The notes under the pieces were generated by a model. It was not told the DNA's origin, searched no databases, and worked only from the letters and a program-made list of their open reading frames with translations. A stretch of 64,000 nt of DNA, taken from contig DAOWGI010000092.1 in the NCBI GenBank assembly GCA_030637655.1, forward strand, positions 33,631 to 97,630, in the 5' to 3' direction. Made by a program: the position numbers and the translations under genes. Position 1 is the first letter of the stretch; each line of letters opens with the position of its first letter. Origin of the DNA: a candidate division FCPU426 bacterium (GTDB lineage Bacteria > Oederibacteriota > JAAXVQ01 > JAUVAV01). Of the stretch, positions 4,714 to 64,000 are shown piece after piece.

Positions 4714-6009
4714 TTATTTTCTACCTACACCCTGATAAGTAAACCCTAGGGCTTTTGTTTTTTGCGGATCATAAATGTTGCGGCCATCCACAATCACCGG
4801 GGTTTTCATTAAGCTTTTGACTCGCTGCAAATCCATCTCTTTGAATTCGTTCCACTCCGTAAATATCACCAGGCAGTGAGCGCCTGCTACCGCTGTGTAG
4901 GCATCATCAGCCAATTTGACTCCAGGTAATTCTTTTTCCGCGTGTTCCAAAGCAGCCGGATCATAAACGCGCACCCTGGCTCCGTTTTCCTGCAACAACC
5001 GGATAACCTCCACCGCCACCGCCTCGCGCAAATCATCAGTGTCCGGTTTAAAAGAAAGTCCCAGGGCCGCAATCTGTTTGCCTTCCAGCGGCCCCAACAC
5101 ATCCTTAATCCTGGCTAACATGGAACGTTTTTGATACGCGTTGGCCTCAACCACGGCATTGAGCACCTTGAAATCATAGCCTTCTTTCTTGGCTTTCTGA
5201 ATCAAAGCGGAAACATCTTTAGGAAAGCAGGAACCGCCGTACCCGGCGCCGGCATTGAGAAACGCGGGCCCTATGCGGGAGTCCATTCCCATACCGTGCG
5301 CCACTTTGATCACGTCCGCGTCCACTTTTTCGCAAAGATTGGCAATCTCGTTGATAAAGGTAATCTTGGTTGCCAGAAACGCGTTGCTGGCGTATTTGAT
5401 CATCTCAGCGCTGCGCAGATCAGTTACCATAATCTCGGCTTCCAAGGGTTTGTACAGTTCGCTCACCCGTTCGGCGGCAACACCATCATTGGTGCCGATC
5501 AGTACCCGGTCCGGATGCATAAAATCATGCACAGCCGATCCTTCCCGCAAAAATTCCGGATTGGAAACCACATCCACTTTATGCTCTAAGCCGCCGTGTT
5601 CCTCAATAATGCTGGCCACCAGATCACCCATGCCAACCGGAACCGTGCTTTTGTCCACCACAATCTTACTGCCATTGAGGTGCTCACCAATACCGGCTGC
5701 CACCTGCTTGACAGCGCTCAAATCCGCTTCGCCGCCTTCAGCTTGCGGGGTCCCGACCGCAATAAAAATAAATTCCGATTGTTCAACACCCTGCTTCAAA
5801 TCAGTGGTGAAGGTCAGACGTTTATGCAAATTATGATCAATCAATTCTTTGAGTCCGGGCTCATAGATGGGTATACTACCCTGCTGCAATTTTTTAATTT
5901 TAGCCTGGTCAACATCCACGCCAATGACCTCATTGCCCAAATCCGCAAAACAGGCGCAGGTGACCAGCCCGACATATCCGGTTCCAACCACACATATTTT
6001 CACAGCCAA
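4714..6009 (-). CDS. ugd: UDP-glucose/GDP-mannose dehydrogenase
   Basis: GTGYVGL, KSTVPVG, SNPEFLREG, GYGGSCFPKD, FKPDTDDLRE, DGRN. Confidence 0.95.
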   Translation of the reverse strand: MAVKICVVGTGYVGLVTCACFADLGNEVIGVDVDQAKIKKLQQGSIPIYEPGLKELIDHNLHKRLTFTTDLKQGVEQSEFIFIAVGTPQAEGGEADLSAVKQVAAGIGEHLNGSKIVVDKSTVPVGMGDLVASIIEEHGGLEHKVDVVSNPEFLREGSAVHDFMHPDRVLIGTNDGVAAERVSELYKPLEAEIMVTDLRSAEMIKYASNAFLATKITFINEIANLCEKVDADVIKVAHGMGMDSRIGPAFLNAGAGYGGSCFPKDVSALIQKAKKEGYDFKVLNAVVEANAYQKRSMLARIKDVLGPLEGKQIAALGLSFKPDTDDLREAVAVEVIRLLQENGARVRVYDPAALEHAEKELPGVKLADDAYTAVAGAHCLVIFTEWNEFKEMDLQRVKSLMKTPVIVDGRNIYDPQKTKALGFTYQGVGRK

Positions 6010-6087
6010 TCTCCCTTCCCTGGTTACTGAAATGTTATTTTCACTTTAAAAACAGGAATAACTCCATATTTATATAAAAAGAAAGGA

Positions 6088-6116
6088 ATTATAGCATTTC
6101 TCTTATTATCCAACAA
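6088..6116 (-). promoter_or_regulatory. Putative sigma70 promoter of the ugd-rml-gmd operon
   Basis: Minus strand TTGTTG-17bp-TATAAT with an extended TG motif. Confidence 0.5.
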
Positions 6117-6152
6117 GTTTAAACCCGTTTTTTTCCTGACTTGGTAAAGCGT

Positions 6153-8333
6153 TTATTCTCCGATCGAGACGCCCTCAGCGCCTCCCATGCCCAGTTTAAA
6201 TTCAGGAAAGGCCTTAAGATTTATACCTAATCCTACTTCCATATTTCCGTCCGAGTAAACTTTGACACCGGCATTCATGGCCCAGCAGTGCAAGTCCCGG
6301 GAAAGACTGAGCGAGAAATTGGTGAATTCCTTTTTTACTGCATCGTACTGGAGCACACTGTTTAAAGAGACGCCGGTTCCGGGCCGGAAACCGGCACTCA
6401 AGGTGCCAAATAAGGAATGATCCCGAATCGCGGTCCCGATATAGGAATACGAACCACTTATGGTCAGATTCCAAATCTTGCCATACATACTGCTGGACAA
6501 ATAGGCGGAGGTAATACGTTCCCGCACCCAGGAGTGTTGTCCTTGCCCGGTTATGGATATCTGCGGACTGATAGTAGCTCTGCCATTAAAGGTCAAGATA
6601 TCCATACGCTCACGCCAATTGTGGTTCTCTTCAAAATCAAGCAAATTATATCCGGTTGAGGTTTGTAAGGTTATAAAATTGCCCATGTAATAGTCAGTGG
6701 CTAGTCCCACACGATGGGATGTGATCCCAGCCCTTGGCAGACTGATATCCGCCAGCATGGGAAACTTGCGCGTGAACTCATGCGAGATACGGGTCTGCAG
6801 CAAGTGCGTTGGTTTAGTATAACGGTAATTGACCCATTTGTTGGTTAAGGTGACACGCGTGCTGTACGCGGCGTCCAATTCAGTTTGCCGGGTATCATAA
6901 TCAGCATAAAAGGTTTCACGATACACCCCGGCAATCGGCAAATTCAAAGAGCCGGACAGACTGGGCTGGGTCACCACCCACACCGGTAGTGTGAGGGTCT
7001 GAGTAAAACCGGGTCTGACACTAAATGTGTCGCGGTATCGATAACGAATAGCTTCTGTCCCAATACGATCATAGGCGCGGTTAACAGAAGAATTAAAATT
7101 AAAATAAATGGGATAACGCATGTCCGCGACTTTGCGGGAAGATAGCGAAAAATTTACCGTCGGCAATTCGCGGCTGGAAGTATAGTATTGATCCCGTTCC
7201 GGATCCAGGCTTTCCACATCACTGGCTCTCATACTAAAATAGTAACCATCTCCACGATGCGAATACGCGAGATAGGATTTCTGCTGGAAAGTATCCACCA
7301 GATCGTATGAAAATTCACGGTTAAAGGTGCGGTCTGAGAGATAGTCCAGATTGAGCTGCAAGAGATCCCGATCCGTAAATTCATGCCGGTTGGACATATT
7401 CGCGGTCCAGCGTTCAACACCCTGTTCCTTATCATTAACATACATGGCCAAAAGATCACCAGCGCCTTTTCCGTAGAATTCATATTCCAGATGATGGTCC
7501 AGCCCCACACCCACACCTTTTTTCTCCATAAAATCCAGTAAGATGCCGCCATAACTTTCTTTCCAGAGGTAATAATTAAAACGCAGTTTGGTAAAAAAAC
7601 CCTCAAAATCATTGTATCCAATCCGGATCGAGAATGGCGTCCGGTTGTCTTTTAAAGAACGGCGGATCCAGGGCAGATAAAAGAGCGGCGTGGTTCCCAC
7701 ATACACAATGGCATGGTGCGCGGTTAAAGAGTCATTGAGGATAATATCGATCTGATCGGCTGTCAGGTGATAATGCGGATGACGGGCATTGCAGGTGGTA
7801 AAACGCGCGGCGCGAATAGTTACCTTGTCTTCGCCCTCTTTTTCCACGGATGCCCCTTGATAATACCAAGGATGCGTGGCAAACAAAATTCCCTGCATTT
7901 TAGCGCTGCGGGTTTCCAAATCATAATCCAATTTGACACACCTGATTTTCCGCTGTTTTTCAATCAGCACCACATTACCTCTGGCATGTACCCAATTGGT
8001 TTCCATATTTGCTTGCGCTTGGTCGGCATTTAAGGTCACATTGGCATACCACACGCGAACATTACCCACTGCGGTGAGCACGCTATTTGCTTCCTCGTAA
8101 TGAAAACGATCCGCAAACAAGGTGACTTTATCAGGCGCTAAAACCTTGCCAACAGCCGTGTTGGACTCCGCCTCCGGTATAACCGGCGCTTCAGCCTGCA
8201 CGACTGTTGGCACCAACACCGGCAGTGCCAAAATCAGCAGTAAAAAAAGTGGCGTGCCGCTATGCGACACGCCGGTCATCAGTTGTCTCATGGTATGCTC
8301 TCGACCCGGATGGCAGCAGTCGCCCGGGGACAT
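6153..8333 (-). CDS. lptD: LPS-assembly protein LptD (OstA) family outer-membrane protein
   Basis: Signal-like hydrophobic segment, OstA-like N-domain (LTAVGNVRV, ARGNVVL), FTTC..HPHY and PLFYLP motifs, C-terminal RDLHCW, beta-strand-rich body. Start uncertain. Confidence 0.8.
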   Translation of the reverse strand: MSPGDCCHPGREHTMRQLMTGVSHSGTPLFLLLILALPVLVPTVVQAEAPVIPEAESNTAVGKVLAPDKVTLFADRFHYEEANSVLTAVGNVRVWYANVTLNADQAQANMETNWVHARGNVVLIEKQRKIRCVKLDYDLETRSAKMQGILFATHPWYYQGASVEKEGEDKVTIRAARFTTCNARHPHYHLTADQIDIILNDSLTAHHAIVYVGTTPLFYLPWIRRSLKDNRTPFSIRIGYNDFEGFFTKLRFNYYLWKESYGGILLDFMEKKGVGVGLDHHLEYEFYGKGAGDLLAMYVNDKEQGVERWTANMSNRHEFTDRDLLQLNLDYLSDRTFNREFSYDLVDTFQQKSYLAYSHRGDGYYFSMRASDVESLDPERDQYYTSSRELPTVNFSLSSRKVADMRYPIYFNFNSSVNRAYDRIGTEAIRYRYRDTFSVRPGFTQTLTLPVWVVTQPSLSGSLNLPIAGVYRETFYADYDTRQTELDAAYSTRVTLTNKWVNYRYTKPTHLLQTRISHEFTRKFPMLADISLPRAGITSHRVGLATDYYMGNFITLQTSTGYNLLDFEENHNWRERMDILTFNGRATISPQISITGQGQHSWVRERITSAYLSSSMYGKIWNLTISGSYSYIGTAIRDHSLFGTLSAGFRPGTGVSLNSVLQYDAVKKEFTNFSLSLSRDLHCWAMNAGVKVYSDGNMEVGLGINLKAFPEFKLGMGGAEGVSIGE

Positions 8334-9448
8334 TAAACAATAGTTTGCTCTGTAGCTCTGTCAAAAAAGTGGGCCTTACTCATATCAAAAACCAGATCAA
8401 TGTCCTGGTTGACTTCCAACTGCTCGTATGAAGCTACCCGAGCCATAAAAGGACTTTTGCCGGTGGTCAAATACAAATAGGCTTCTGCGCCCATGGGTTC
8501 CACCACTTCCACGGTTGCGGTAATGGTGTTGTCCGGCGAGGCATTGGAAGCATACACTTTATCAAAAATATCCTCCGGCCGGATCCCTAAGGTTAAATCT
8601 TTGCCCATGTATTCTTCCAGCGTGGAAATGTGATCATCATGGACTTTTACTGTAAAATTCTCTTCAGAAAAATAAACCGCATCTTTTTTCTTAATCAATG
8701 ACCCTTCCATAAAGTTCATAGCAGGAGATCCGATAAACCCGGCCACAAATTTGTTGGTGGGTTGATCATACAAGGTAATAGGATCGGCAATCTGTTGGAT
8801 CAACCCGTCTTTCATGACCACAATACGATCACCCATGGTCATGGCTTCAACCTGATCGTGCGTAACATAAATCATGGTAGCTTGCAAACGGGTGTGCAAT
8901 TTGCTAATCTCAGCACGCATCTGGACACGCAATTTGGCGTCCAAATTGGATAGCGGTTCGTCAAAGAGAAATACTTTGGGTTTCCGAACAATAGCTCTGC
9001 CCACAGCCACACGCTGCCGCTGACCACCGGAGAGCACTCTGGGTTTCTTCTCTAAAATGTCAGTAATCCCGAGAATATCCGCGGTTTCCAAAACCCGCTG
9101 CTGGATCTCTTCTTTGGGCAATTTCTTTAATTTCAAACCAAACGACATGTTTTCATACACATTCATGTGCGGATAGAGCGCGTAATTCTGAAAAACCATG
9201 GCAATGTCACGATCTTTAGGAGGCATATCATTGACTAACTTGTCTGCAATCATAATTTCGCCTTCAGTGATATCTTCCAAACCGGCAATTAAACGTAAAG
9301 TAGTTGATTTTCCGCATCCGGACGGACCGACCAAGACAATAAATTCTTTGTCTTCACAACTTAAATTGACATTTCTAACTGCTTCCTTAGGTTTTCCGGG
9401 CTTATCCGGAAATCTTTTCCAAACATTTTTAAGAACCACACGTGCCAA
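8333..9448 (-). CDS. Sugar ABC transporter ATP-binding protein (MalK/MsmX/UgpC type)
   Basis: GPSGCGKST, VFQNYALYPHM, LSGGQRQR, DEPLSNLDAKLR, YVTHDQ, C-terminal TOBE/OB region. Confidence 0.95.
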   Translation of the reverse strand: MARVVLKNVWKRFPDKPGKPKEAVRNVNLSCEDKEFIVLVGPSGCGKSTTLRLIAGLEDITEGEIMIADKLVNDMPPKDRDIAMVFQNYALYPHMNVYENMSFGLKLKKLPKEEIQQRVLETADILGITDILEKKPRVLSGGQRQRVAVGRAIVRKPKVFLFDEPLSNLDAKLRVQMRAEISKLHTRLQATMIYVTHDQVEAMTMGDRIVVMKDGLIQQIADPITLYDQPTNKFVAGFIGSPAMNFMEGSLIKKKDAVYFSEENFTVKVHDDHISTLEEYMGKDLTLGIRPEDIFDKVYASNASPDNTITATVEVVEPMGAEAYLYLTTGKSPFMARVASYEQLEVNQDIDLVFDMSKAHFFDRATEQTIV

Positions 9449-56484: not shown

Positions 56485-58443
56485 TTACTTCTTACGTGCT
56501 CCTTCTGATTTCCCGGTCCGCGTATTTCCCAGACTGCCATTGGCTGTGGAAGTATTGCTGCTGGGCAAGGGTGGTCCCAATTGTTTGGTAACCGGCAAAT
56601 ATACAAAATCAAACCAAGGCGGATTATCTCCATCCGCCGGCGAGGTGACCTTTATGGCTACCATCTGTTGGCCGCCGTTTTTATTATAAATAGAATCTGT
56701 ACGCAGGCATAAAGATACGGTCTGAGTATTATTGTGAGGCCCCAGATTATCAAGGACTTTGGGTTTTTCGTCAAGCCGTATTAAGCGCGGCATATCCACT
56801 AATTCCGCCGACACAGCGGTAGTACTGTTAGCGGATAGATTGGTAATTTTTAACTTGAGTTCTGTATCACGGTGCAGAATCAATTCCAGCGGAGCTTCGA
56901 TTTCCACCTTATACGAATAGCGCTTGGCCTTTGCTTTAAGCCGGGTAAAAGAGGCGGCGCCGCACATGATCCACTCTTTGCTGCCATACGGACCGCGGGC
57001 GCCAAAAAAAGCCCGGGCCAGATCATGCCAGAACAAGCCAAAGGTCTTGGTTAGCGGATAGAGCTCTTTAATGGTCAGCACTTGCCGGTCCAGATGCTCC
57101 CAAGTGCCGGCAGGATCTTTAGTGCGCTGTAACAGGTTCCAATCCACCGGCTGACCAAACACCAGACTGGCATCTGCTTTGCGCAGATACTTTTTCCAAT
57201 CATATAACATGTGCGGCAAATCCGGTTTCTCAATCTCATAAAACATAGGCGCGTTAAAACCAATACCCGCATCCAGCATCATCAAGAGATCCTGGCCATG
57301 CTGATGCCCGCCTCTCCAGCCCAAAGAAAATACCCAGACCGGTTTGGTAGGTTTCACTTCAGCCATAATGTGCTCAATTACCAAAGCCACTTTATGTGCC
57401 CGCCACCACATCCATTGCTCACGCGCGGCTTTGACCCGTCTGACCTGGATCAGGCGCGCCAGCCAGAGGCTGCGTTCTGAGGAAGACCATTTGGACCATT
57501 GGACGGGAGTAGTAATATCCATATCGCGCACAAACTCATCTGCAAACTCATACCCGCCAAAATCCGTACGCATATAATCCAGGCCGATGTAATCCACATT
57601 CGGATCAGCCTCGAACTTTTTAAGCAGTTCAATAATATGTATAATTCTTTCCTGGCATCCTAAAGACACATAGCGAAGCTGACGCAAAGCATTCTTTTCC
57701 CGGCTGTATCCCAGAGTAAAAGAGTATCCGCTGTCTTCAATCTTATTACCAATCACCACAAACGAGGTAACCCAGGCGCCGTACTGCATGCCGGCCTCAT
57801 GCGATTCCTTAGCTGCGCGTTTCATTAAACGGACTGTGTATTTGGAAAAAGGAAAGAGATCATCCTTGCGTTTGCCCCAGATTTGCGTTTGACCAACACA
57901 CTGCCAAAAGGCGTCAGCGCCCATGTACTTGGTCCAGGAGATTAAATTTCTCCAGGACCGCTTGCCACCAGGTTCCATGCTCGGAGTTTTATTAGGACCG
58001 TATTTCCCGCCTTCGTAAGTCACCACTGAAAAACCTTTGGGCAATTCATAGGGTTTGCGCCCGCGGATTTTAAATTGACCGTGGGCTGTGAGCGTGGTGG
58101 ACTTGCCGTCAAAAACCGCCACTTTGGCCGTATAAGTGCCTAAGGTTGGATTAAACGGAATCGGCCACAAGCCTTCCCATTGACCGGATGCTTGTTTTTT
58201 TAGGACAATTTTTTTAAGACTGCCAACAGTTGTGATCCGGGTCTTGCCTTTCCAGATCGTAGCTGAGAGCTTGTCCGGCAAACTTTTCACCCTGGCCGTA
58301 GGCGTGGTTCCAGGACTGACAATGACTTTCACCAATTCATAACGCCAATATTGATCCTTTTCCGTTGTAAGTGTAAGCTCACCTGCCAGTGCGGAAGAGG
58401 CAGAAACGAGCAGCAGCGTAGCTATCCAAACAAAATATCGCAA
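56485..58443 (-). CDS. Secreted protein with Ig-like ends and a putative glycoside-hydrolase-like TIM barrel
   Basis: TTG start with AGGAGG RBS, signal peptide ending [15 protein letters not shown] and APMFY motifs reminiscent of GHL10/DUF4015. Confidence 0.6.
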
Positions 58444-58560
58444 AAAATCCTCCTTAAGGACCCAAAACTATATGCTTTTAATGAAAAACAATACCATTAA
58501 TAGGACCCCGGATGCAAGTATAACCAAGTGGAAGTGAGTAAATAAAGGGATTATATTAGG

Positions 58561-58623
58561 TGTAGGGAACAGTCGCGACTGTTCCCTACTACAAATTTTT
58601 CCGGTTGGGGGACCGTTTCCTAC
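58561..58623. repeat. GTAGGGAAC-subtype REP-like pair
   Basis: GTAGGGAACAGTCGCGACTGTTCCCTAC followed by GGGGACCGTTTCCTAC. Confidence 0.8.
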
Positions 58624-58676
58624 GTTATCGGTATCCGTTATCCGGACAACGCACTGATTTATTGGGAGCAATGAAG

Positions 58677-58883
58677 CTAAGCCGCTTTGTTTTTTACTTC
58701 CTGATAAGAAAATTCCGCTAAACCGGCTTTGGCTTTGGCGTGCTCAATTGTCATATTCACCAGGTTGCCGTCTTCATCGAGGTCAATATAAATATTCTCG
58801 TTTATTTCTCTTGTTTCAGAAACCGGCTTATCAGAAAATTCCAGATTCGCCGTATCCGTGTCAGTAAAATATTTAATTTTCAT
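58677..58883 (-). CDS. DUF2283-family protein (putative antitoxin)
   Basis: MKIKYFTDTDTA.LEF...V.ET.E...NIYIDLDEDGNLV..TIEHA pattern. Confidence 0.85.
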   Translation of the reverse strand: MKIKYFTDTDTANLEFSDKPVSETREINENIYIDLDEDGNLVNMTIEHAKAKAGLAEFSYQEVKNKAA

Positions 58884-58951
58884 GCTTCATCCTCCTTCTG
58901 AAAACCTCTATCAAAAAACGCATTATGCACAGTTTCGCCGTCCTCGAGGAG
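58880..58951 (-). pseudogene. 3' remnant of the cognate toxin-like gene of the DUF2283 module
   Basis: Reads LLEDGETVHNAFFDRGFQKEDEA-stop with ATGA overlap into DUF2283; the 5' part is replaced by an intron 5' stub. Confidence 0.7.
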
Positions 58952-58961
58952 CCTGGCGCAA
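58951..58961 (-). mobile_element. Group II intron 5' stub (11 nt) after exon motif GGGGACGTTCTC
   Basis: TTGCGCCAGGC is identical to the first 11 nt of the two longer remnants and is preceded by the same exon motif in the same register. Confidence 0.6.
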
Positions 58962-59010
58962 GAGAACGTCCCCCGTCCGTTTTCCTGATGAATTTATTAA
59001 TACCGGTTTC

Positions 59011-59063
59011 CGTAGAGACGTTGCATGCGCAAGTGCCCGTTTTGAGGGTACAACGTCTCTACA
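59011..59063. repeat. GTAGAGACG-subtype REP-like element
   Basis: GTAGAGACGTTG...CAACGTCTCTAC. Confidence 0.75.
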
Positions 59064-59120
59064 GGATGTTATGACATATGATTTCTCGTTATCCGGTTAT
59101 CCTAATCATAACCCCGTCTC

Positions 59121-59993
59121 CTATTGAACTCTCAACTTATCTCTGGTAATGGCGTTGAAAAAATCCGCTGACCACAATTGCAATTCATCAGGATTTCCAA
59201 CAAAAGGCAGCACATCTTTTTTAGCCTGCTCATAGTGTAGGGCCTGAAATTTATTTTCAAGCAATGCTGTCAGGTCTTCTTGCGTGATCTGGTCTTGTGA
59301 TTTCCAATGTCCCGTTTGCACCATCCGCTGCTGCAAATGCTCCAGGTTTATCGAAACGTCTCGCGAAAGGTACCAGATATAATCAAACAGATCCCTCCCT
59401 TTTACCCGGTCACCTTTCCAGTTGCGGCATAATAGCGCATGCAATTTCCCGGCAAACAGGGAACTTTGCGTAAATACCCTGACTGAAAAAGGAATCGGCA
59501 TGAGCAGGTATTTCATCTCATACTCAGCACCCGGGGGCGGATCCGTATCCACTTCAAGCTTGATTTTAAGCGATTCATTTTCATCAATGCCCGCTACCGG
59601 GGGCCGAATGGCTGCTATTTTCAATAAATGTATTTTTGTATTTCCTTTTATAAATGCTGACTCTATGGCAGTATCTGCTGTTTTTTCTTTTTTCTTGACC
59701 TCGACATCAAAACCATAAGCCGCCATTTCTTCCTGTATCACAGCGCAATACGGACTGATATCAAATTGATGGTCTTTTTTTAGAAGAGAAAAATCCAGAT
59801 CCTCTGAAAATCGCGGCAATCCGTAAAATACGCGTAATGCTGTGCCGCCGTAAAAGGCGGCCTTTTCAAAAAAGCGATTCCTAAACAATCCCAGCAGGGC
59901 AATTTGCTGAATAATTTCCTTGAGCGCATTTTTATGTTCATCCGGTGTTTTGGCCTGATAGTTTTTGAGCATCGACTCAATCGCGCTATGCAT
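59121..59993 (-). CDS. abiEii: AbiEii-family nucleotidyltransferase toxin (type IV TA)
   Basis: FYGGTALR, RFSEDLDFS, IKLEVD, AGKLHA, KGRDLFD. Start reset to ATG 59993. Confidence 0.9.
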   Translation of the reverse strand: MHSAIESMLKNYQAKTPDEHKNALKEIIQQIALLGLFRNRFFEKAAFYGGTALRVFYGLPRFSEDLDFSLLKKDHQFDISPYCAVIQEEMAAYGFDVEVKKKEKTADTAIESAFIKGNTKIHLLKIAAIRPPVAGIDENESLKIKLEVDTDPPPGAEYEMKYLLMPIPFSVRVFTQSSLFAGKLHALLCRNWKGDRVKGRDLFDYIWYLSRDVSINLEHLQQRMVQTGHWKSQDQITQEDLTALLENKFQALHYEQAKKDVLPFVGNPDELQLWSADFFNAITRDKLRVQ

Positions 59994-60603
59994 ATCTTTC
60001 TCCTTTTTCCAGATATTGACAAAGCAATGTGATAACGCCTTTTTCATACACTTCTGATAAAAAAGCCATATCCTGTTGGTTTACTAAAAAAAGCGCTTCT
60101 CTTTCCATGCGAAGGTCCTCATAAAGAAGCATTTTCAGCTTCTTTATGCTTGTCACCCTGCCTGCCTTTATCAGTGTGTCACAAAGTGCCTTTTCCCTGC
60201 CGGCGATTAAAAAAGGACTCCCGTTCTCTCCCCTGCGGTCAATACCGTATGGATAAGCATGCGCAGGAACACTTTGATAAAAAAAAGCTCCCAGCGGTGT
60301 GGTAAATAGCTTGCTCTTGTTCTTGCCCATGCTGGCGGAGGTTATCGTATGAACGCGCTCAGGAATAAGCCCGTAAAAACTCAAAGCATATTCAAAAGAA
60401 ATATAGGATGGACCGTAGATTTTATTGGCCAGGGTTTTTAAAGATACATTGGTATTATGAGGCCAAACGTACAATCCCCGTCTGACCTTGATAATCTCAT
60501 TGGACTTGATCATCCTGGTGATCTTGGCCTTGGGCGAAGCATATTCCTTCAGCGCATCCAGAAGATACAAATAATCTATGTACCCTACATCTTGATTAAG
60601 CAT
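59986..60603 (-). CDS. abiEi: AbiEi-family antitoxin (type IV TA)
   Basis: IIKVRRGLY, PSYISFEYALSFYGLIPERV, EKALCD; overlaps the toxin start. Confidence 0.9.
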   Translation of the reverse strand: MLNQDVGYIDYLYLLDALKEYASPKAKITRMIKSNEIIKVRRGLYVWPHNTNVSLKTLANKIYGPSYISFEYALSFYGLIPERVHTITSASMGKNKSKLFTTPLGAFFYQSVPAHAYPYGIDRRGENGSPFLIAGREKALCDTLIKAGRVTSIKKLKMLLYEDLRMEREALFLVNQQDMAFLSEVYEKGVITLLCQYLEKGERYA

Positions 60604-60624
60604 TTTTCCTCCAGCAAGTACACT

Positions 60625-60682
60625 ATTATCATACTTATTGGAGAATATTGCAACATATATCTCTCTTTTTCTCCGAATAGTA
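60625..60682 (-). promoter_or_regulatory. abiE promoter with overlapping imperfect inverted repeat
   Basis: Minus strand TTGCAA-17bp-GATAAT; IR TACTTATTGGAGAA (60632-60645) / TTCTCCGAATAGTA (60669-60682). Confidence 0.55.
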
Positions 60683-60764
60683 CATTATTTCGATACTTTT
60701 GGGAGATTTTATCGGTATTGGAAAAAAAACAAATTTTCATTGCAGATTATTTTGATTTTTTCAT

Positions 60765-60790
60765 GTAGGGGCGGGTTCCGAACCCGCCCT
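60765..60790 (+). repeat. GTAG-type REP-like palindrome
   Basis: GTAGGGGCGGGTTCCGAACCCGCCCT. Confidence 0.75.
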
Positions 60791-60817
60791 TGCGATTTTA
60801 TTTTATTAACCGGTTAT

Positions 60818-60985
60818 CCTGCCGCTGTTGTCAAAACGTCGGCTTTCGGTTGGGGCTTTCAGGGCTCAATCACACGGCCTGCTTTGCCGAGCGGGGTTGA
60901 CTACCCGCTAGGGTTCAATACAAGGTAGTGGTTCAAAAATTCGAACCCCTACTCATCACCTTTGTCCGGACTTTGCCTGGCGCAA
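60818..60985 (-). mobile_element. Group II intron 5' (domain I) remnant, internally deleted
   Basis: Begins TTGCGCCAGGCAAAGTCCGG; contains CAGGCCGTGTGATTGAGCCCTGAAA; colinear with 62068-62517 except for a deletion of about 77 bp. Confidence 0.75.
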
Positions 60986-61009
60986 AAGAACGTCACCTTT
61001 CAACTATCG

Positions 61010-61309
61010 CTAAATTCCCTTTCCAATGGTTTGAACAACGTCAGCGCTTATTTTTGAATAATCTGCGGCAAAACCCAATTTCTTCAATTCTTCCGTCAAA
61101 TCAATCTCGGATTTCAACTTGCTCGGTTTGGGAACAAGAAAATCCATGTCGCGAGTATAAAAAATACTTTTCCCCAAGGTTTTGTTCTCAAAATAATTCG
61201 AATAAAACAGTTCCGCCCAGCTGCCTATGAGAATTGTTTCCTCAAGCACACCCAGATCTGCCAGTTTGCCCAGTAATTTAATGCAAAAATTATATTGTTG
61301 CGGGTCCAC
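61010..61309 (-). pseudogene. Truncated GSU2403-like nucleotidyltransferase-fold (toxin-like) gene
   Basis: ILIGSWA..FY and TRDMDFLVP nucleotidyltransferase motifs, but the ORF stops at 99 aa just before the intron insertion motif. Confidence 0.7.
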
Positions 61310-61604
61310 GCAAGGCGCTCCTGAGGGCTTTTATTTGAGCCTTCAAAATTTTAATGTTTTCCATATATTTCCGGCGCAATTGTTTTGACTTTTTAAATTT
61401 TACGAAAACAGCCTGGTCATATTTGCCATAATATCGATAAACTATTCTAGGCCCGTCACGGCGCGCCAAATAGAGATACTTGCGATTGCGAATGTTTTTT
61501 ACCACCATCACTTCTTTGGGAAGTTTGCGAATTTCGCTTTCAAAGCGCCGGCACATTTGAACCGTATTTTTCAGCTCTTCTGCTAATATGCCTCTGATTG
61601 CCAT
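61290..61604 (-). CDS. Small basic protein, putative antitoxin/regulator partner of the nucleotidyltransferase
   Basis: IRKLPKEVMVVKNIRNRKYLYLARRDG..IVYRYYGK followed by a coiled coil; overlaps the downstream gene; GGGAG RBS. Confidence 0.7.
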   Translation of the reverse strand: MAIRGILAEELKNTVQMCRRFESEIRKLPKEVMVVKNIRNRKYLYLARRDGPRIVYRYYGKYDQAVFVKFKKSKQLRRKYMENIKILKAQIKALRSALRGPATI

Positions 61605-61616
61605 ATTCTCCCCTGG

Positions 61617-61704
61617 TTAACCAACATTTTATATTAATGTTATCATGTTGGTTAACACTTGTCAATTAACCAACATTTATTATATCTCTTTATTTGTTGG
61701 TTAA
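61617..61704 (-). promoter_or_regulatory. Promoter with two tandem inverted-repeat operators
   Basis: TTAACCAACA-N19-TGTTGGTTAA twice (61617-61655, 61666-61704); minus strand TTGACA (61660-61665)-17bp-TAACAT with extended TG. Confidence 0.8.
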
Positions 61705-61775
61705 TAATGCCAAAGGGGATACTCATGATTTTATGACTCAAGCTTTTTTCTAAAGTCATTATCTCGCCGGGTGAC

Positions 61776-61980
61776 CGAGGAGTTTGTCGGACTTAACACA
61801 TCCAAAACAAGTATCCGCGTTGTTAAATAGCACATACTGAAAATCCCTCTCACTCCCCCTTTTCAAAAAGGGGGAGTGAGAGGGATTTTTTCAGCTTGCA
61901 GTCGCCTTTAATACGTGCCTTCTTTTAAAATTCCACGCCAGGCACACCAATTTCCATTCTTCCTGTACTCCTTTCATATC
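61776..61980 (-). mobile_element. IS1182-family right-end remnant
   Basis: 61891-61980 translates DMKGVQEEWKLVCLAWNFKRRHVLKATAS-stop (the EW.LVCLA.N.KR C-terminal motif); then a long hairpin at 61840-61889 and the IR GAGTTTGTCGGACTT at 61780-61794. Confidence 0.75.
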
Positions 61981-61986
61981 CGATTA

Positions 61987-62517
61987 ATCGCTATCCGCTG
62001 GTTTTCAGTTTACAGGTTACCACGGTTCTGTGTCCTCACCATGTTTCCCTCCAGCGATTCCGTTTTTCTACTTCCGCTGTTGCTAGTGTAGTGTCTCTTA
62101 AATAGCTTTACATTTGGTAATGCCATTTTGCAGCGAACTTCCCTTGGTCCGTCACCCCGGAATGGTTTTATCCGGGGTCCAGAATGATTTTGATTACCAA
62201 CGCCTCTGGATTCCGGCTTAAAGCATACCGGAATGACATCTTAAAAATAAAATTCAAATGTAAAGAAGCGTAGAGACACTACACTAGAGCGTCGGCCTTT
62301 AGCTATGGGGATTTCGGGGCTCAATCACATGGCCTGCGTACTCACTGTCTGCGCTTCGTCATAGAGAGTCACCTCTCCATCACGCAAGACTCGCTTTAAG
62401 GCTGTTGGCTAAGCTTTGCCGAGCGGGGTTGATTACCCGCTAGGTTTCAATACAAGGTAGAGATTCGAAATTTCTAACCCCTACTCATCCTCTTAGTCCG
62501 GACTTTGCCTGGCGCAA
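61987..62517 (-). mobile_element. Group II intron remnant: domain I plus decayed start of the intron-encoded ORF, interrupted by a MITE
   Basis: TTGCGCCAGG start; GCGAGTCTTGCGTG, CGAAGCGCAGACAG and GTGATTGAGCCCCGAAA domain I motifs; GGAGGGAAAC-ATG at 62042 reads MVRTQNRGNL*TENQRIA. Confidence 0.8.
62083..62287. mobile_element. MITE inserted at CTAG, carrying a GTCA...TGAC REP hairpin (62151-62237)
   Basis: Perfect 16-bp terminal IR CTAGTGTAGTGTCTCT / AGAGACACTACACTAG plus subterminal CTTTACATTTG / CAAATGTAAAG; removing it restores colinearity with the intron copy near 60822-60843. Confidence 0.85.
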
Positions 62518-62675
62518 ATGTACGTCCCGTTTTCACACTAAAGAGACATGATTGATCTTTCGTCCAATTTGTAATACAATTGCATTTTAGACGATTACTT
62601 TATTTTTGGACTTCCCCCAAATAATACTTAATTTAATATGGAGGTGTGTCCACAATATCGGGGGAAGGTCACATA

Positions 62676-63623
62676 TTACATATAAAAAGACAAGCATAAG
62701 CATATCATTGACCCTAATATTGTAGCTACAATAACAGCACAACCAGACTGCGCCTGTTTCTTCGATTGTTTTGCTTCGATCCGAATAACTTGCGCACGCT
62801 CAGAACGCGATGATTCTCCGTCAAATTTCCACTCCGGAATAAAATCTCCCACAACATAACTATTTGTTTTTTTCACTACAGGTTTAATTCCAACAGCAAC
62901 TTCCTTATACTCTCTTCCCACTTCCTTGTATTCGGTTTTGTATTCCCAATTAGGATCGCTTTTCGGAGAAATTGTTTCTGGTATTTTTGCCAATGTTTCC
63001 ATAATTCTGTTTCGATTGAGTACTGGACATAGTTCATTTTCATTTAATGCAATTTCTAATTCGTGTTTTATTTTTCCTTTATCAAAATACCATATTCCAG
63101 CATTATCAAGTTCACCATATTCCAGCCAACCACCACCCCACTCATATATAGGCATATTCATTCTTTTACATCCCCATATATTTGCATCATAATCTGATTC
63201 ACCAAAACAATATTGTTTTGGTTTATATGCTTTAATTCGATTTCTATAGCATCCAACACCATAGTAAGTTAATTCTTTCTTGGAAGCTGACCGATTATTT
63301 ATCAGCATCTTAGAAGATTTCCAAGTTCCAACAAGATCAAATATCGTTACAATTAGCTCGACTTCTGTTATCGGAAGAGAGATAACGTGGCGTATTGATT
63401 TACCTTCTCCTTCAGTTTCAAAAGATGGAATATTCTTACATATCTCTAATGCTCTCGTATAATTCGAAGATGAACTTAGCCCAAAATATATTTTACCATT
63501 GGGGATTTGTGGCATGTCATTTCGTTCAATAGCTTTATCAGCTTCTGTAACTGGATCACCACACTGCGCACAGAATTTCGCACCATCAGTTATACTTGCT
63601 CCACATTTATCACACTCAAGCAT
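62676..63623 (-). CDS. Hypothetical protein with N-terminal zinc ribbon and C-terminal TM anchor
   Basis: CDKCG...FCAQCG; C-terminal hydrophobic GCAVIVATILGSMICLCLSFYM; AGGAGG RBS; visibly AT-richer than core genes. Confidence 0.75.
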   Translation of the reverse strand: MLECDKCGASITDGAKFCAQCGDPVTEADKAIERNDMPQIPNGKIYFGLSSSSNYTRALEICKNIPSFETEGEGKSIRHVISLPITEVELIVTIFDLVGTWKSSKMLINNRSASKKELTYYGVGCYRNRIKAYKPKQYCFGESDYDANIWGCKRMNMPIYEWGGGWLEYGELDNAGIWYFDKGKIKHELEIALNENELCPVLNRNRIMETLAKIPETISPKSDPNWEYKTEYKEVGREYKEVAVGIKPVVKKTNSYVVGDFIPEWKFDGESSRSERAQVIRIEAKQSKKQAQSGCAVIVATILGSMICLCLSFYM

Positions 63624-64000
63624 TTTTACAACCCTCCTTTTTCAATTTTCGAGGAATGGGGACGATGTATCCCTGGCTTTTTTCTGCATCATTTTCTGTA
63701 TAGCCCTTGTTCTTCCTATACATATAATTAAGGGTCCTTTATGCGTCGTTGTTTTATAAATAAATCATATTCAATTTCCCTCTTTCTGCACATCTTGTCA
63801 ATTCAATTGTTGCGCTTTGTGTGCAATTGGCTGCTGTTATGTTATCTCCGTGTTGTCTGCGTTGCTTGCCTTTGCTTTAATTCCCTTAATCCGTATTCAG
63901 AATCTCTTTAATCATTCTTTTCAGTTCCCTCAACTCAAATTGATCAGCGTCAATTATATTTTCCCTCTAACGATAATTAAAATTTCCGGTTTTTAGATGC

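Follow-up and report, generated by a model that had tools for sequence, protein, structure and literature searches.

A group II intron lineage that encodes no open reading frame (ORF) probably homes into the terminus of a short repeat linked to a Y1 transposase, and its copies in the DNA examined here appear as decayed, 3'-truncated remnants. This DNA is a 64,000-nucleotide stretch (the window) of the genome of a candidate division FCPU426 bacterium, and it stops at a contig end (G000:C41:33631-97630, where G000 is the genome under study, G001-G010 are genomes of relatives, C numbers are contigs and X numbers are sequencing runs; bare positions are those of the window). An earlier note on this stretch had described three intron 5' ends behind a conserved motif, and had taken the motif to be a border site in a gene-capture array. 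In our analysis the shared 12-mer behind that motif is explained without a new gene-capture system.

Sequence reading and a repeat finder both give three minus-strand 23-mers in one shared register (a slash marks the junction): GGGGACGTTCTC/TTGCGCCAGGC at 58973-58951, GGTGACGTTCTT/TTGCGCCAGGC at 60997-60975 and CGGGACGTACAT/TTGCGCCAGGC at 62529-62507, referred to below as copies a, b and c (Table 1). The coordinates and sequences of the three 5' ends, each following the 12-mer in identical register, were thus reproduced. The same is true, on reading the sequence, of the invariant GACGT at positions -9 to -5 of the 5' exon, found in all three copies within a 12-mer of the form GG[GT]GACGT... 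The intron-start 11-mer, TTGCGCCAGGC, has three exact matches in the window, and five when up to one mismatch is allowed, against 1.34 expected (3 of 100 shuffles reach five). Exact matches occur at 17 sites genome-wide: eight carry the 12-mer in register, a site on C8 counts as a ninth with a 1-nt indel, and the other eight exact sites look like chance matches. The related motif that the earlier note placed in the opposite orientation, GGGGACGATGTA, is present, but by sequence alone it is indistinguishable from chance, because GGGGACG alone occurs 198 times against 303 for its reversed control, and GGGGACGA 42 times. The bare motif is accordingly not enriched.

That the downstream parts are group II intron 5' ends, as proposed, is supported by an Rfam search. 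Copy c matches RF02005 (group-II-D1D4-6) at 62280-62431 on the minus strand (64.8 bits, E 7e-16). Copy b reaches only 14.7 bits with this model and is identified through its 88% identity to copy c over 120 nt, while the 11 nt of intron left in copy a are too short for the comparison. The intron 5' end reads UUGCG, against a GUGYG-like expectation. Between 58500 and 64000, no match to RF00029, the model for domains V and VI (D5/D6), was found at E<=1; since this catalytic part is present in the complete copies of relatives, the window copies are remnants and not working introns. Copy c is itself interrupted by a MITE (miniature inverted-repeat transposable element) of 205 bp, a 96% copy of which lies on C113, with dozens more related elements in the genome and the family; the palindrome at the expected D5/D6 place of copy c is likewise multi-copy in the genome (C28, C88, C108, C36 and others). 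One contig of X2 joins copy c just past the MITE (62086) to the interior of copy b (60851) via 17 other letters, which corresponds to a MITE-free intron copy somewhere in the X2 population.

Further junction copies lie on C96 (four), C8, C43, C70 and C81. RF02005 scores 154 bits on C81 and 120 bits on C80, where a third intron type begins. All 11 pieces of types A and B (the two subfamilies defined below) start at intron nt 1 by blastn, and D5/D6 (RF00029) was found in no A- or B-type copy of the genome by blastn, or by nhmmer on six stretches; ten of the truncation points lie inside contigs, and the C81 piece reaches a contig end. No reverse transcriptase (RT) ORF was found inside or after any intron copy, and such RT fragments as the genome contains are parts of other introns. 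One RT fragment, on C30, lies beside a frameshifted ORF that may be IS91-like. At the start of C74 (L019, 66-722) two matches to domain V lie 590 nt from each other with an RT/maturase fragment in between, and may stem from introns of a different family in nested or tandem arrangement.

The motif also exists without the intron, as the earlier note had suggested, in a dispersed repeat family. In a loose scan the 12-mer recurs in intergenic positions with CGGTAATACGG after it, and in the repeat GGGGACGTTGTT/CGGTAATACGG... it forms the outer 12 nt of a terminal inverted repeat (TIR). The repeat units are ~103 bp long and end in 27-nt perfect inverted repeats, GGGGACGTTGTTCGGTAATACGGTTAT. With up to three mismatches, the 23-mer GGGGACGTTGTTCGGTAATACGG has 25 matches in the genome and none for its reversed control; the sites are intergenic, and 18 of these 25 A-type repeats are paired in inverted orientation, in most cases at a distance of 103 bp. 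A degenerate pattern for the A-type 12-mer occurs 23 times against 5 for the control, and the exact B-type 12-mer 46 times against 10 across 11 genomes. The motif is thus the terminus of a dispersed repeat found mostly in short inverted doublets, and not a sequence specific to cassette borders as first supposed. No target-site duplication was evident in the eight short A-type doublets inspected, and a classical MITE with such a duplication was set aside. Partial termini of 12-13 nt abut full repeats on C82 and at C57:5848.

The earlier note had proposed a search for an HUH (Y1/RAYT-like) transposase next to the motif, and one is present. In a 1.1-kb unit at C82:7560-8663 the inverted repeats flank a 339-aa ORF with a match to Pfam Y1_Tnp (IS200-like; 37.7 bits, cut-off 23) and a DnaA_C helix-turn-helix (HTH), whose translation holds HIH and YIHLNPV. 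Its top NCBIfam match is the REP-associated tyrosine transposase (RAYT; REP, repetitive extragenic palindromic) NF047646, at 63.4 bits under the cut-off of 80. This transposase subfamily has one full-length copy in the genome; a 57% identical paralogue at G007:C12:366-1370 is flanked by B-type repeats, GGGGCCGGAGTTAGCTTATAAGCTT, whose terminus is the sister motif GGTGCCGGAGTT. The repeat family is therefore REP/REPIN-like (REPIN, REP doublets forming hairpins) and linked to a Y1 (HUH) transposase of the RAYT-like TIRYT/TIRtron kind.

Several other repeats and motif-like sequences were encountered. A 268-bp unit at G000:C104:39789-40056 has motif-type inverted ends, GGGGACGTTGTTTAGTTGTCCAG..., and a small ORF of ~55 aa. 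A motif-like sequence at C104:19026 is out of register and inside a 198-aa ORF, and was taken as chance; a 74-bp hairpin doublet at 643-716 of the window is a different repeat; and a hairpin directly 3' of the 12-mer holds, by eye, for some variants only. The GTAG...CTAC hairpins at 58555-58596 and 59012-59062 are of the classical REP kind and belong to another family than the intron's target.

Complete introns are preserved in relatives. The intron 5' region was found in five of 41 related genomes, all of one family, and within this family the A-type repeat and the intron 5' region are present in the same five of 11 genomes. Only the intron 3' end was found in G010, and 3' ends in relatives lie mostly at contig ends. 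Pattern scans of public collections gave one locus among genome contigs and two among metagenome contigs. The introns fall into two subfamilies, A, which follows GGGGACG(G/T)N(G/C)T(C/T), and B, which follows GGTGCCGGAGTT, such that motif type co-varies with intron type; B-type copies in relatives occupy at least nine distinct sites with unrelated flanks. A complete B-type copy of 782 nt on the metagenome contig L069 is ORF-less and scores 144.5 bits with RF02005, and its RF00029 match terminates exactly at the inferred 3' splice site. This match and that in G002:C51 reach 36.9 bits (E 1.9e-4), under the gathering score of 40, and that in G007:C52 reaches 25.9 bits. The complete type A copy in G007:C52 measures 443 nt, is also ORF-less and is without the domain I (D1) loop near nt 225. 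ORFs downstream of intron copies, such as PIF1 and Fic, are unrelated to the intron.

These complete introns sit between nt 12 and 13 of the repeat: repeat nt 1-12 form the 5' exon, and the repeat runs on in the 3' exon. The exons on L069, GGTGCCGGAGTT and AACTTATTAAC, agree with an uninterrupted site, GGTGCCGGAGTT/AACTTATTAC, at C64:115, and splicing of a B-type copy would give the ligated exons GGTGCCGGAGTT/AACTTATT. The 3' exon in G002:C51 consists of a 35-nt loop, an inverted B 12-mer (GGTGCCGGAGTT) and then an inverted A 12-mer (GGGGACGGAGTC), while that in G007, CGGATGACCGGTTAAC, is by eye similar to repeat nt 13-28. The fixed site in the repeat bears out the suggestion that an intron lineage has specialised on the motif much as IIC-attC introns have on attC.

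We propose that a non-autonomous intron of the group-II-D1D4-6 type inserts between nt 12 and 13 of a REP/REPIN-like terminal inverted repeat, the outer end of which, the shared 12-mer, would remain upstream as the 5' exon. The 12-mer would be recognised through pairing with the exon-binding sites EBS1 and EBS2, the RT of another intron would mobilise the element in trans, and the missing 3' parts may have been lost through later deletion. ORF-less bacterial group II introns can be mobilised in trans, and the present lineage resembles them in being a compact ribozyme without an intron-encoded protein (IEP) and in having several copies per genome; it differs in its defined repeat target and in that only 5' stubs survive in this genome. 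In B copies the D1 loop near nt 225 holds GACUCC, which pairs at six of six positions with GGAGUU/C, whereas the candidate EBS1 loop of type A, GACAAC, pairs at three to five of six with the observed 5' exons. Type B thus probably recognises its target by RNA guidance, which for type A is unproven.

The incomplete A-type pairing is the first of several points that weigh against retrohoming into the repeat. No convincing EBS2 candidate was found, 5-nt candidates occurring at unusual places only (these were left unused), and the 5 nt beside the splice site differ among copies, which is unusual for the intron-binding site IBS1. No helper RT could be tied to the lineage, the RT fragments of the genome being those of other introns. 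Furthermore, all 11 pieces are 5'-anchored and without D5/D6, whereas retrohoming normally gives 5'-truncated copies; simple decay does not predict this asymmetry, and abortive retrohoming would give the opposite bias. Full-length copies may have escaped assembly, the genome being a draft of 91.6% completeness, and this tempers the argument from 5' bias. Finally, a composite of B 12-mer, 72 nt, A 12-mer and stub is present in five copies that share their left end and are nested at the right, from which it follows that some copies spread as DNA and not by retrohoming.

Were such spread the general case, motif and stub would be a DNA-level repeat unit distributed by segmental duplication or recombination, the intron having inserted once or a few times. 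The composites on C96 and C8 have ~84 nt of upstream sequence plus the stub in common, and stubs b, c and d of C96 are lengthened by a shared stretch that holds another 12-mer and the start of a C80-type intron; for part of the C96 set, the single duplicated segment that the earlier note had weighed against its own reading does exist. The window copies, however, have unrelated upstream flanks and differ in their last five exon nucleotides, with only 88% identity between b and c. Together with the many B-type sites in relatives, each in unrelated flanks, and the complete copies with proper 3' exons, this makes it unlikely that duplication is the general explanation.

One could also see here a degenerate chromosomal integron, or a cluster of attC sites lacking integron integrases (CALIN), whose attC sites carry IIC-attC introns. 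The genes form a series in one orientation that is rich in toxin-antitoxin (TA) modules, and truncated introns are reported in CALINs (PMC7923331). We nevertheless consider this highly improbable and rejected it. With TIGR02249, the model for integron integrases, the top score is 85 bits (cut-off 265), short of an IntI-level match; the repeats are near-perfect 27-nt inverted repeats in which no RYYYAAC...GTTRRRY frame of the attC kind is seen by eye; and the enzyme linked to them is an HUH transposase of the Y1 type. IIC-attC introns encode an IEP and are inserted in the attC bottom strand, against the direction of cassette transcription (PMC3001079), whereas here the intron is on the coding strand, that of the upstream gene, at all 12 loci in the genome. 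The earlier note's view that the intron is not of the IIC-attC kind is upheld. The likeness to IIC-attC introns such as S.ma.I2 lies in the specialisation on a short structured repeat of another mobile system, in the position between modules and in frequent truncation; unlike them, the present introns are co-oriented with genes, ORF-less and inserted within an arm of the repeat, not behind a hairpin, and their partner is the repeat of an HUH Y1 transposase rather than attC/IntI. A tandem-intron reading, with the 12-mer as the 3' end of another intron, was discarded, the genome's other introns having dissimilar 3' ends.

The window copies stand in an inserted island (Table 1). Six loci of relatives were fetched for synteny, with tblastn on four of them. 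In G002, G007 and G001 the 652-aa gene that precedes the island lies beside lepA and is directly followed by genes that in this genome are located on C16; the region from 58444 to at least the end of the window is therefore an insertion. G006 has its own 4.7-kb insert at this locus. No intron-type motif site was found at the six synteny loci scanned in relatives, and against 15 genomes of the order only the repeats and the DUF2283 gene of the array DNA found matches. The modules between the sites are those the earlier note had listed, namely DUF2283, AbiEii/AbiEi, an NTP_transf_8-like pair and a Zn-ribbon gene.

Table 1. Features of the 3' part of the window (EBS, exon-binding site; MITE, miniature inverted-repeat transposable element; REP, repetitive extragenic palindromic; TIR, terminal inverted repeat)
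Feature	Position	Strand	Remarks
Inserted island	58444-64000	.	starts after the 652-aa gene (56485-58443)
DUF2283 gene, 68 aa	58677-58883	-	downstream of stub a
Intron stub a, first 11 nt	58951-58961	-	X5 has a 62-nt version against the same downstream sequence
REP/TIR terminus GGGGACGTTCTC	58962-58973	-	5' exon of copy a
AbiEi-like/AbiEii toxin-antitoxin module	59121-60603	-	
Intron stub b	60818-60985	-	nt 1-105, internal deletion, then ~nt 176-239; without D5/D6
REP/TIR terminus GGTGACGTTCTT	60986-60997	-	5' exon of copy b; 13 nt past the stop of the NTase-like gene
Two-gene module: 104-aa gene and 99-aa NTP_transf_8-like gene	61010-61604	-	weak Pfam match under cut-off
Perfect 24+24-nt palindrome AAAATCCCTCTCACTCCCCCTTTT/...	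61840-61889		at the expected D5/D6 place of copy c
Intron copy c	61973-62517	-	nt 1-230 at 62517-62288, MITE, homology again at 62078-61973 (blastn/nhmmer against complete introns)
MITE, 205 bp, 15-bp terminal inverted repeats	62083-62287		within the candidate EBS1 loop of copy c
REP/TIR terminus CGGGACGTACAT	62518-62529	-	5' exon of copy c; same register as genome-wide copies
Zn-ribbon protein gene, 315 aa	62676-63623	-	module upstream of site c
Motif-like GGGGACGATGTA	63658-63669	+	opposite orientation; one X5 contig departs from the reference here

Further repeats lie within this island. Just upstream of the pair of 104-aa and 99-aa genes, at 61616-61705, four copies of TTAACCAACAT form two inverted pairs and resemble an autoregulatory operator. 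In one X4 contig a 49-nt unit of this array is absent; a joint from 61616 to 61666 lies in these operator repeats. The last ~60 nt of the window (63940-64000) are identical to the ends of five contigs (C17, C66, C67, C85 and C110), a multi-copy element that breaks the assembly. The contig expected to continue the island, C16, begins with tandem 36-nt repeats (G000:C16:1-125).

Elsewhere in the genome, C96 represents a second island, with stubs between genes for TIR-domain, HEPN, response regulator, Schlafen, UPF0158, DUF7309, Mut7-C, PIN-VapB, ORF6N and Fic proteins. Other stubs follow a Fic gene, the gene for a 162-aa protein (with a weak Pfam match below cut-off) and genes for an LVIVD protein, a helicase and a methyl-accepting chemotaxis protein (MCP). 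At the 12 loci mentioned above the motif always lies 3-191 nt downstream of the stop of a same-strand ORF. The stubs therefore come to lie between gene modules because the repeats lie just downstream of genes, and the occurrence of stubs after ordinary genes such as those for MCP and LVIVD proteins indicates an association with gene 3' ends, and not with accessory genes alone.

It is against this background that a cassette array has to be judged. The 12-mer would then be the cleavage and joining site of the Y1 transposase, segments with an end at it, genes included, would be excised and inserted as single strands, and the array would be a non-integron cassette system; the 5'-only stubs would be scars of transposase events in which all that lies right of the junction is removed or replaced, with the intron specialised on that junction. 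Both proposals seem to us doubtful. What speaks for them is in part the same-strand series of motifs in accessory islands: three in 3.6 kb in the window, four stubs and three intron-free B motifs on C96 among the TIR, HEPN, Schlafen, Mut7-C, PIN-VapB and Fic genes, and 12 copies in 4.2 kb on G009:C1 among Mrr, GmrSD and Phd-ParE genes. In addition, many different sequences come after the same 12-mer, the partial termini on C82 and at C57:5848 adjoin full repeats at about nt 12-13, and the five composites combine a common left end with nested right ends. Most A-type repeats, however, are ordinary short doublets and not gene borders; REPs are known to lie downstream of genes in any case (PMC3733652), and other stubs come after ordinary genes. 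Neither circle junctions nor a module at two places with motif-defined ends were seen, and the module DNA, the DUF2283 gene excepted, is without homologue in the 15 genomes of the order.

The G009 series (L102, G009:C1:1036000-1049000) occupies 4872-9075 of that locus as twelve same-strand repeat singlets in an island of Mrr, GmrSD, rve-fragment and Phd-ParE genes. Ten are (G)AATG-GGTGCCGGAGTT-AGTTTATTAGTTTAA-like and two are GGGGACGTTCTT-AAAAGA.. variants, one of which truncates a duplicated small ORF. Intron probes gave no match in G009.

Closely related DNA offers two further observations that would suit a joining site. In X5, another study's metagenome that is ~96-98% identical, departures from the reference fall precisely at intron nt 1 (60985) and at 63669/63670, on single contigs: position 60985 is joined to 63670 through 12 other letters, and a 62-nt stub stands directly before 58948, where the reference has an 11-nt stub. 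X5 contains the AbiE sequence, but the NTase and Zn-ribbon modules are uncovered; X4 and X5 lack cover on parts of the stretch, which is not evidence of absence. These joints are hints only, because each is seen on a single contig at ~4x depth, with sides of 37 and 62 nt, in repeated sequence where assemblies break. A further joint, 61713 to 61981, has a 30-nt side and was not used as evidence, nor were 62086 to 60851 and 61616 to 61666. For capture or excision of modules at the motif, as the earlier note had envisaged, we thus find no evidence beyond the hints given by the nested duplication and the two low-depth joints, and homing of an ORF-less intron into the repeat terminus remains our preferred reading.

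Among known systems, the repeats resemble those of REPIN-RAYT and TIRtron/TIRYT in being short, intergenic, mostly inverted doublets with GGGG-type termini, and, as in TIRtron/TIRYT, each repeat type flanks a single Y1 transposase gene (PMC3733652). For TIRtrons, which likewise lie downstream of genes, the published terminal motif is GGGGWSAS (Di Nocera et al. 2013, PMC3733652); the termini found here, GGGGACGT and GGTGCCGG, fit this motif partially. Unlike RAYT/TIRYT enzymes, the present transposase has a DnaA-C-like HTH and a RAYT score under the cut-off. An intron occupying the repeat is not described for TIRtrons in the available part of PMC3733652.

One mobile element landing in the conserved repeat of another has precedents. 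IS1111-family elements insert in the inverted repeats of Tn21. The present intron is in this respect like the insertion sequences that target REPs (PMC1525189); those, however, are DNA transposons. A Pseudomonas putida group II intron lies beside REPs in two of nine copies (Tobes & Pareja 2006, PMC1525189, table), a loose link (22%) with no fixed position. Our literature search, which subscription journals and supplements largely lay outside, returned no paper on REP/REPIN repeats that have a group II intron at a fixed place inside them, the P. putida entry being the nearest.

That group II introns hide in other mobile DNA, with one lineage specialised on the attC sites of integrons, was known already. 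With the present lineage there is a second case, in which an intron without a protein of its own has specialised on the terminus of a repeat belonging to a RAYT-like HUH transposase. The arrangement would constitute a three-layer stack of parasites, with a transposase repeat, an intron within the repeat and a MITE within the intron. The junction between repeat nt 12 and 13 provides a sequence handle for asking where this class of transposase cuts, and whether repeats of the REP type contribute to the shuffling of defence and TA modules. Should the 12-mer prove to be a joining point for the Y1 enzyme, the same-strand series in defence and TA islands would represent a single-strand, integron-like cassette system.

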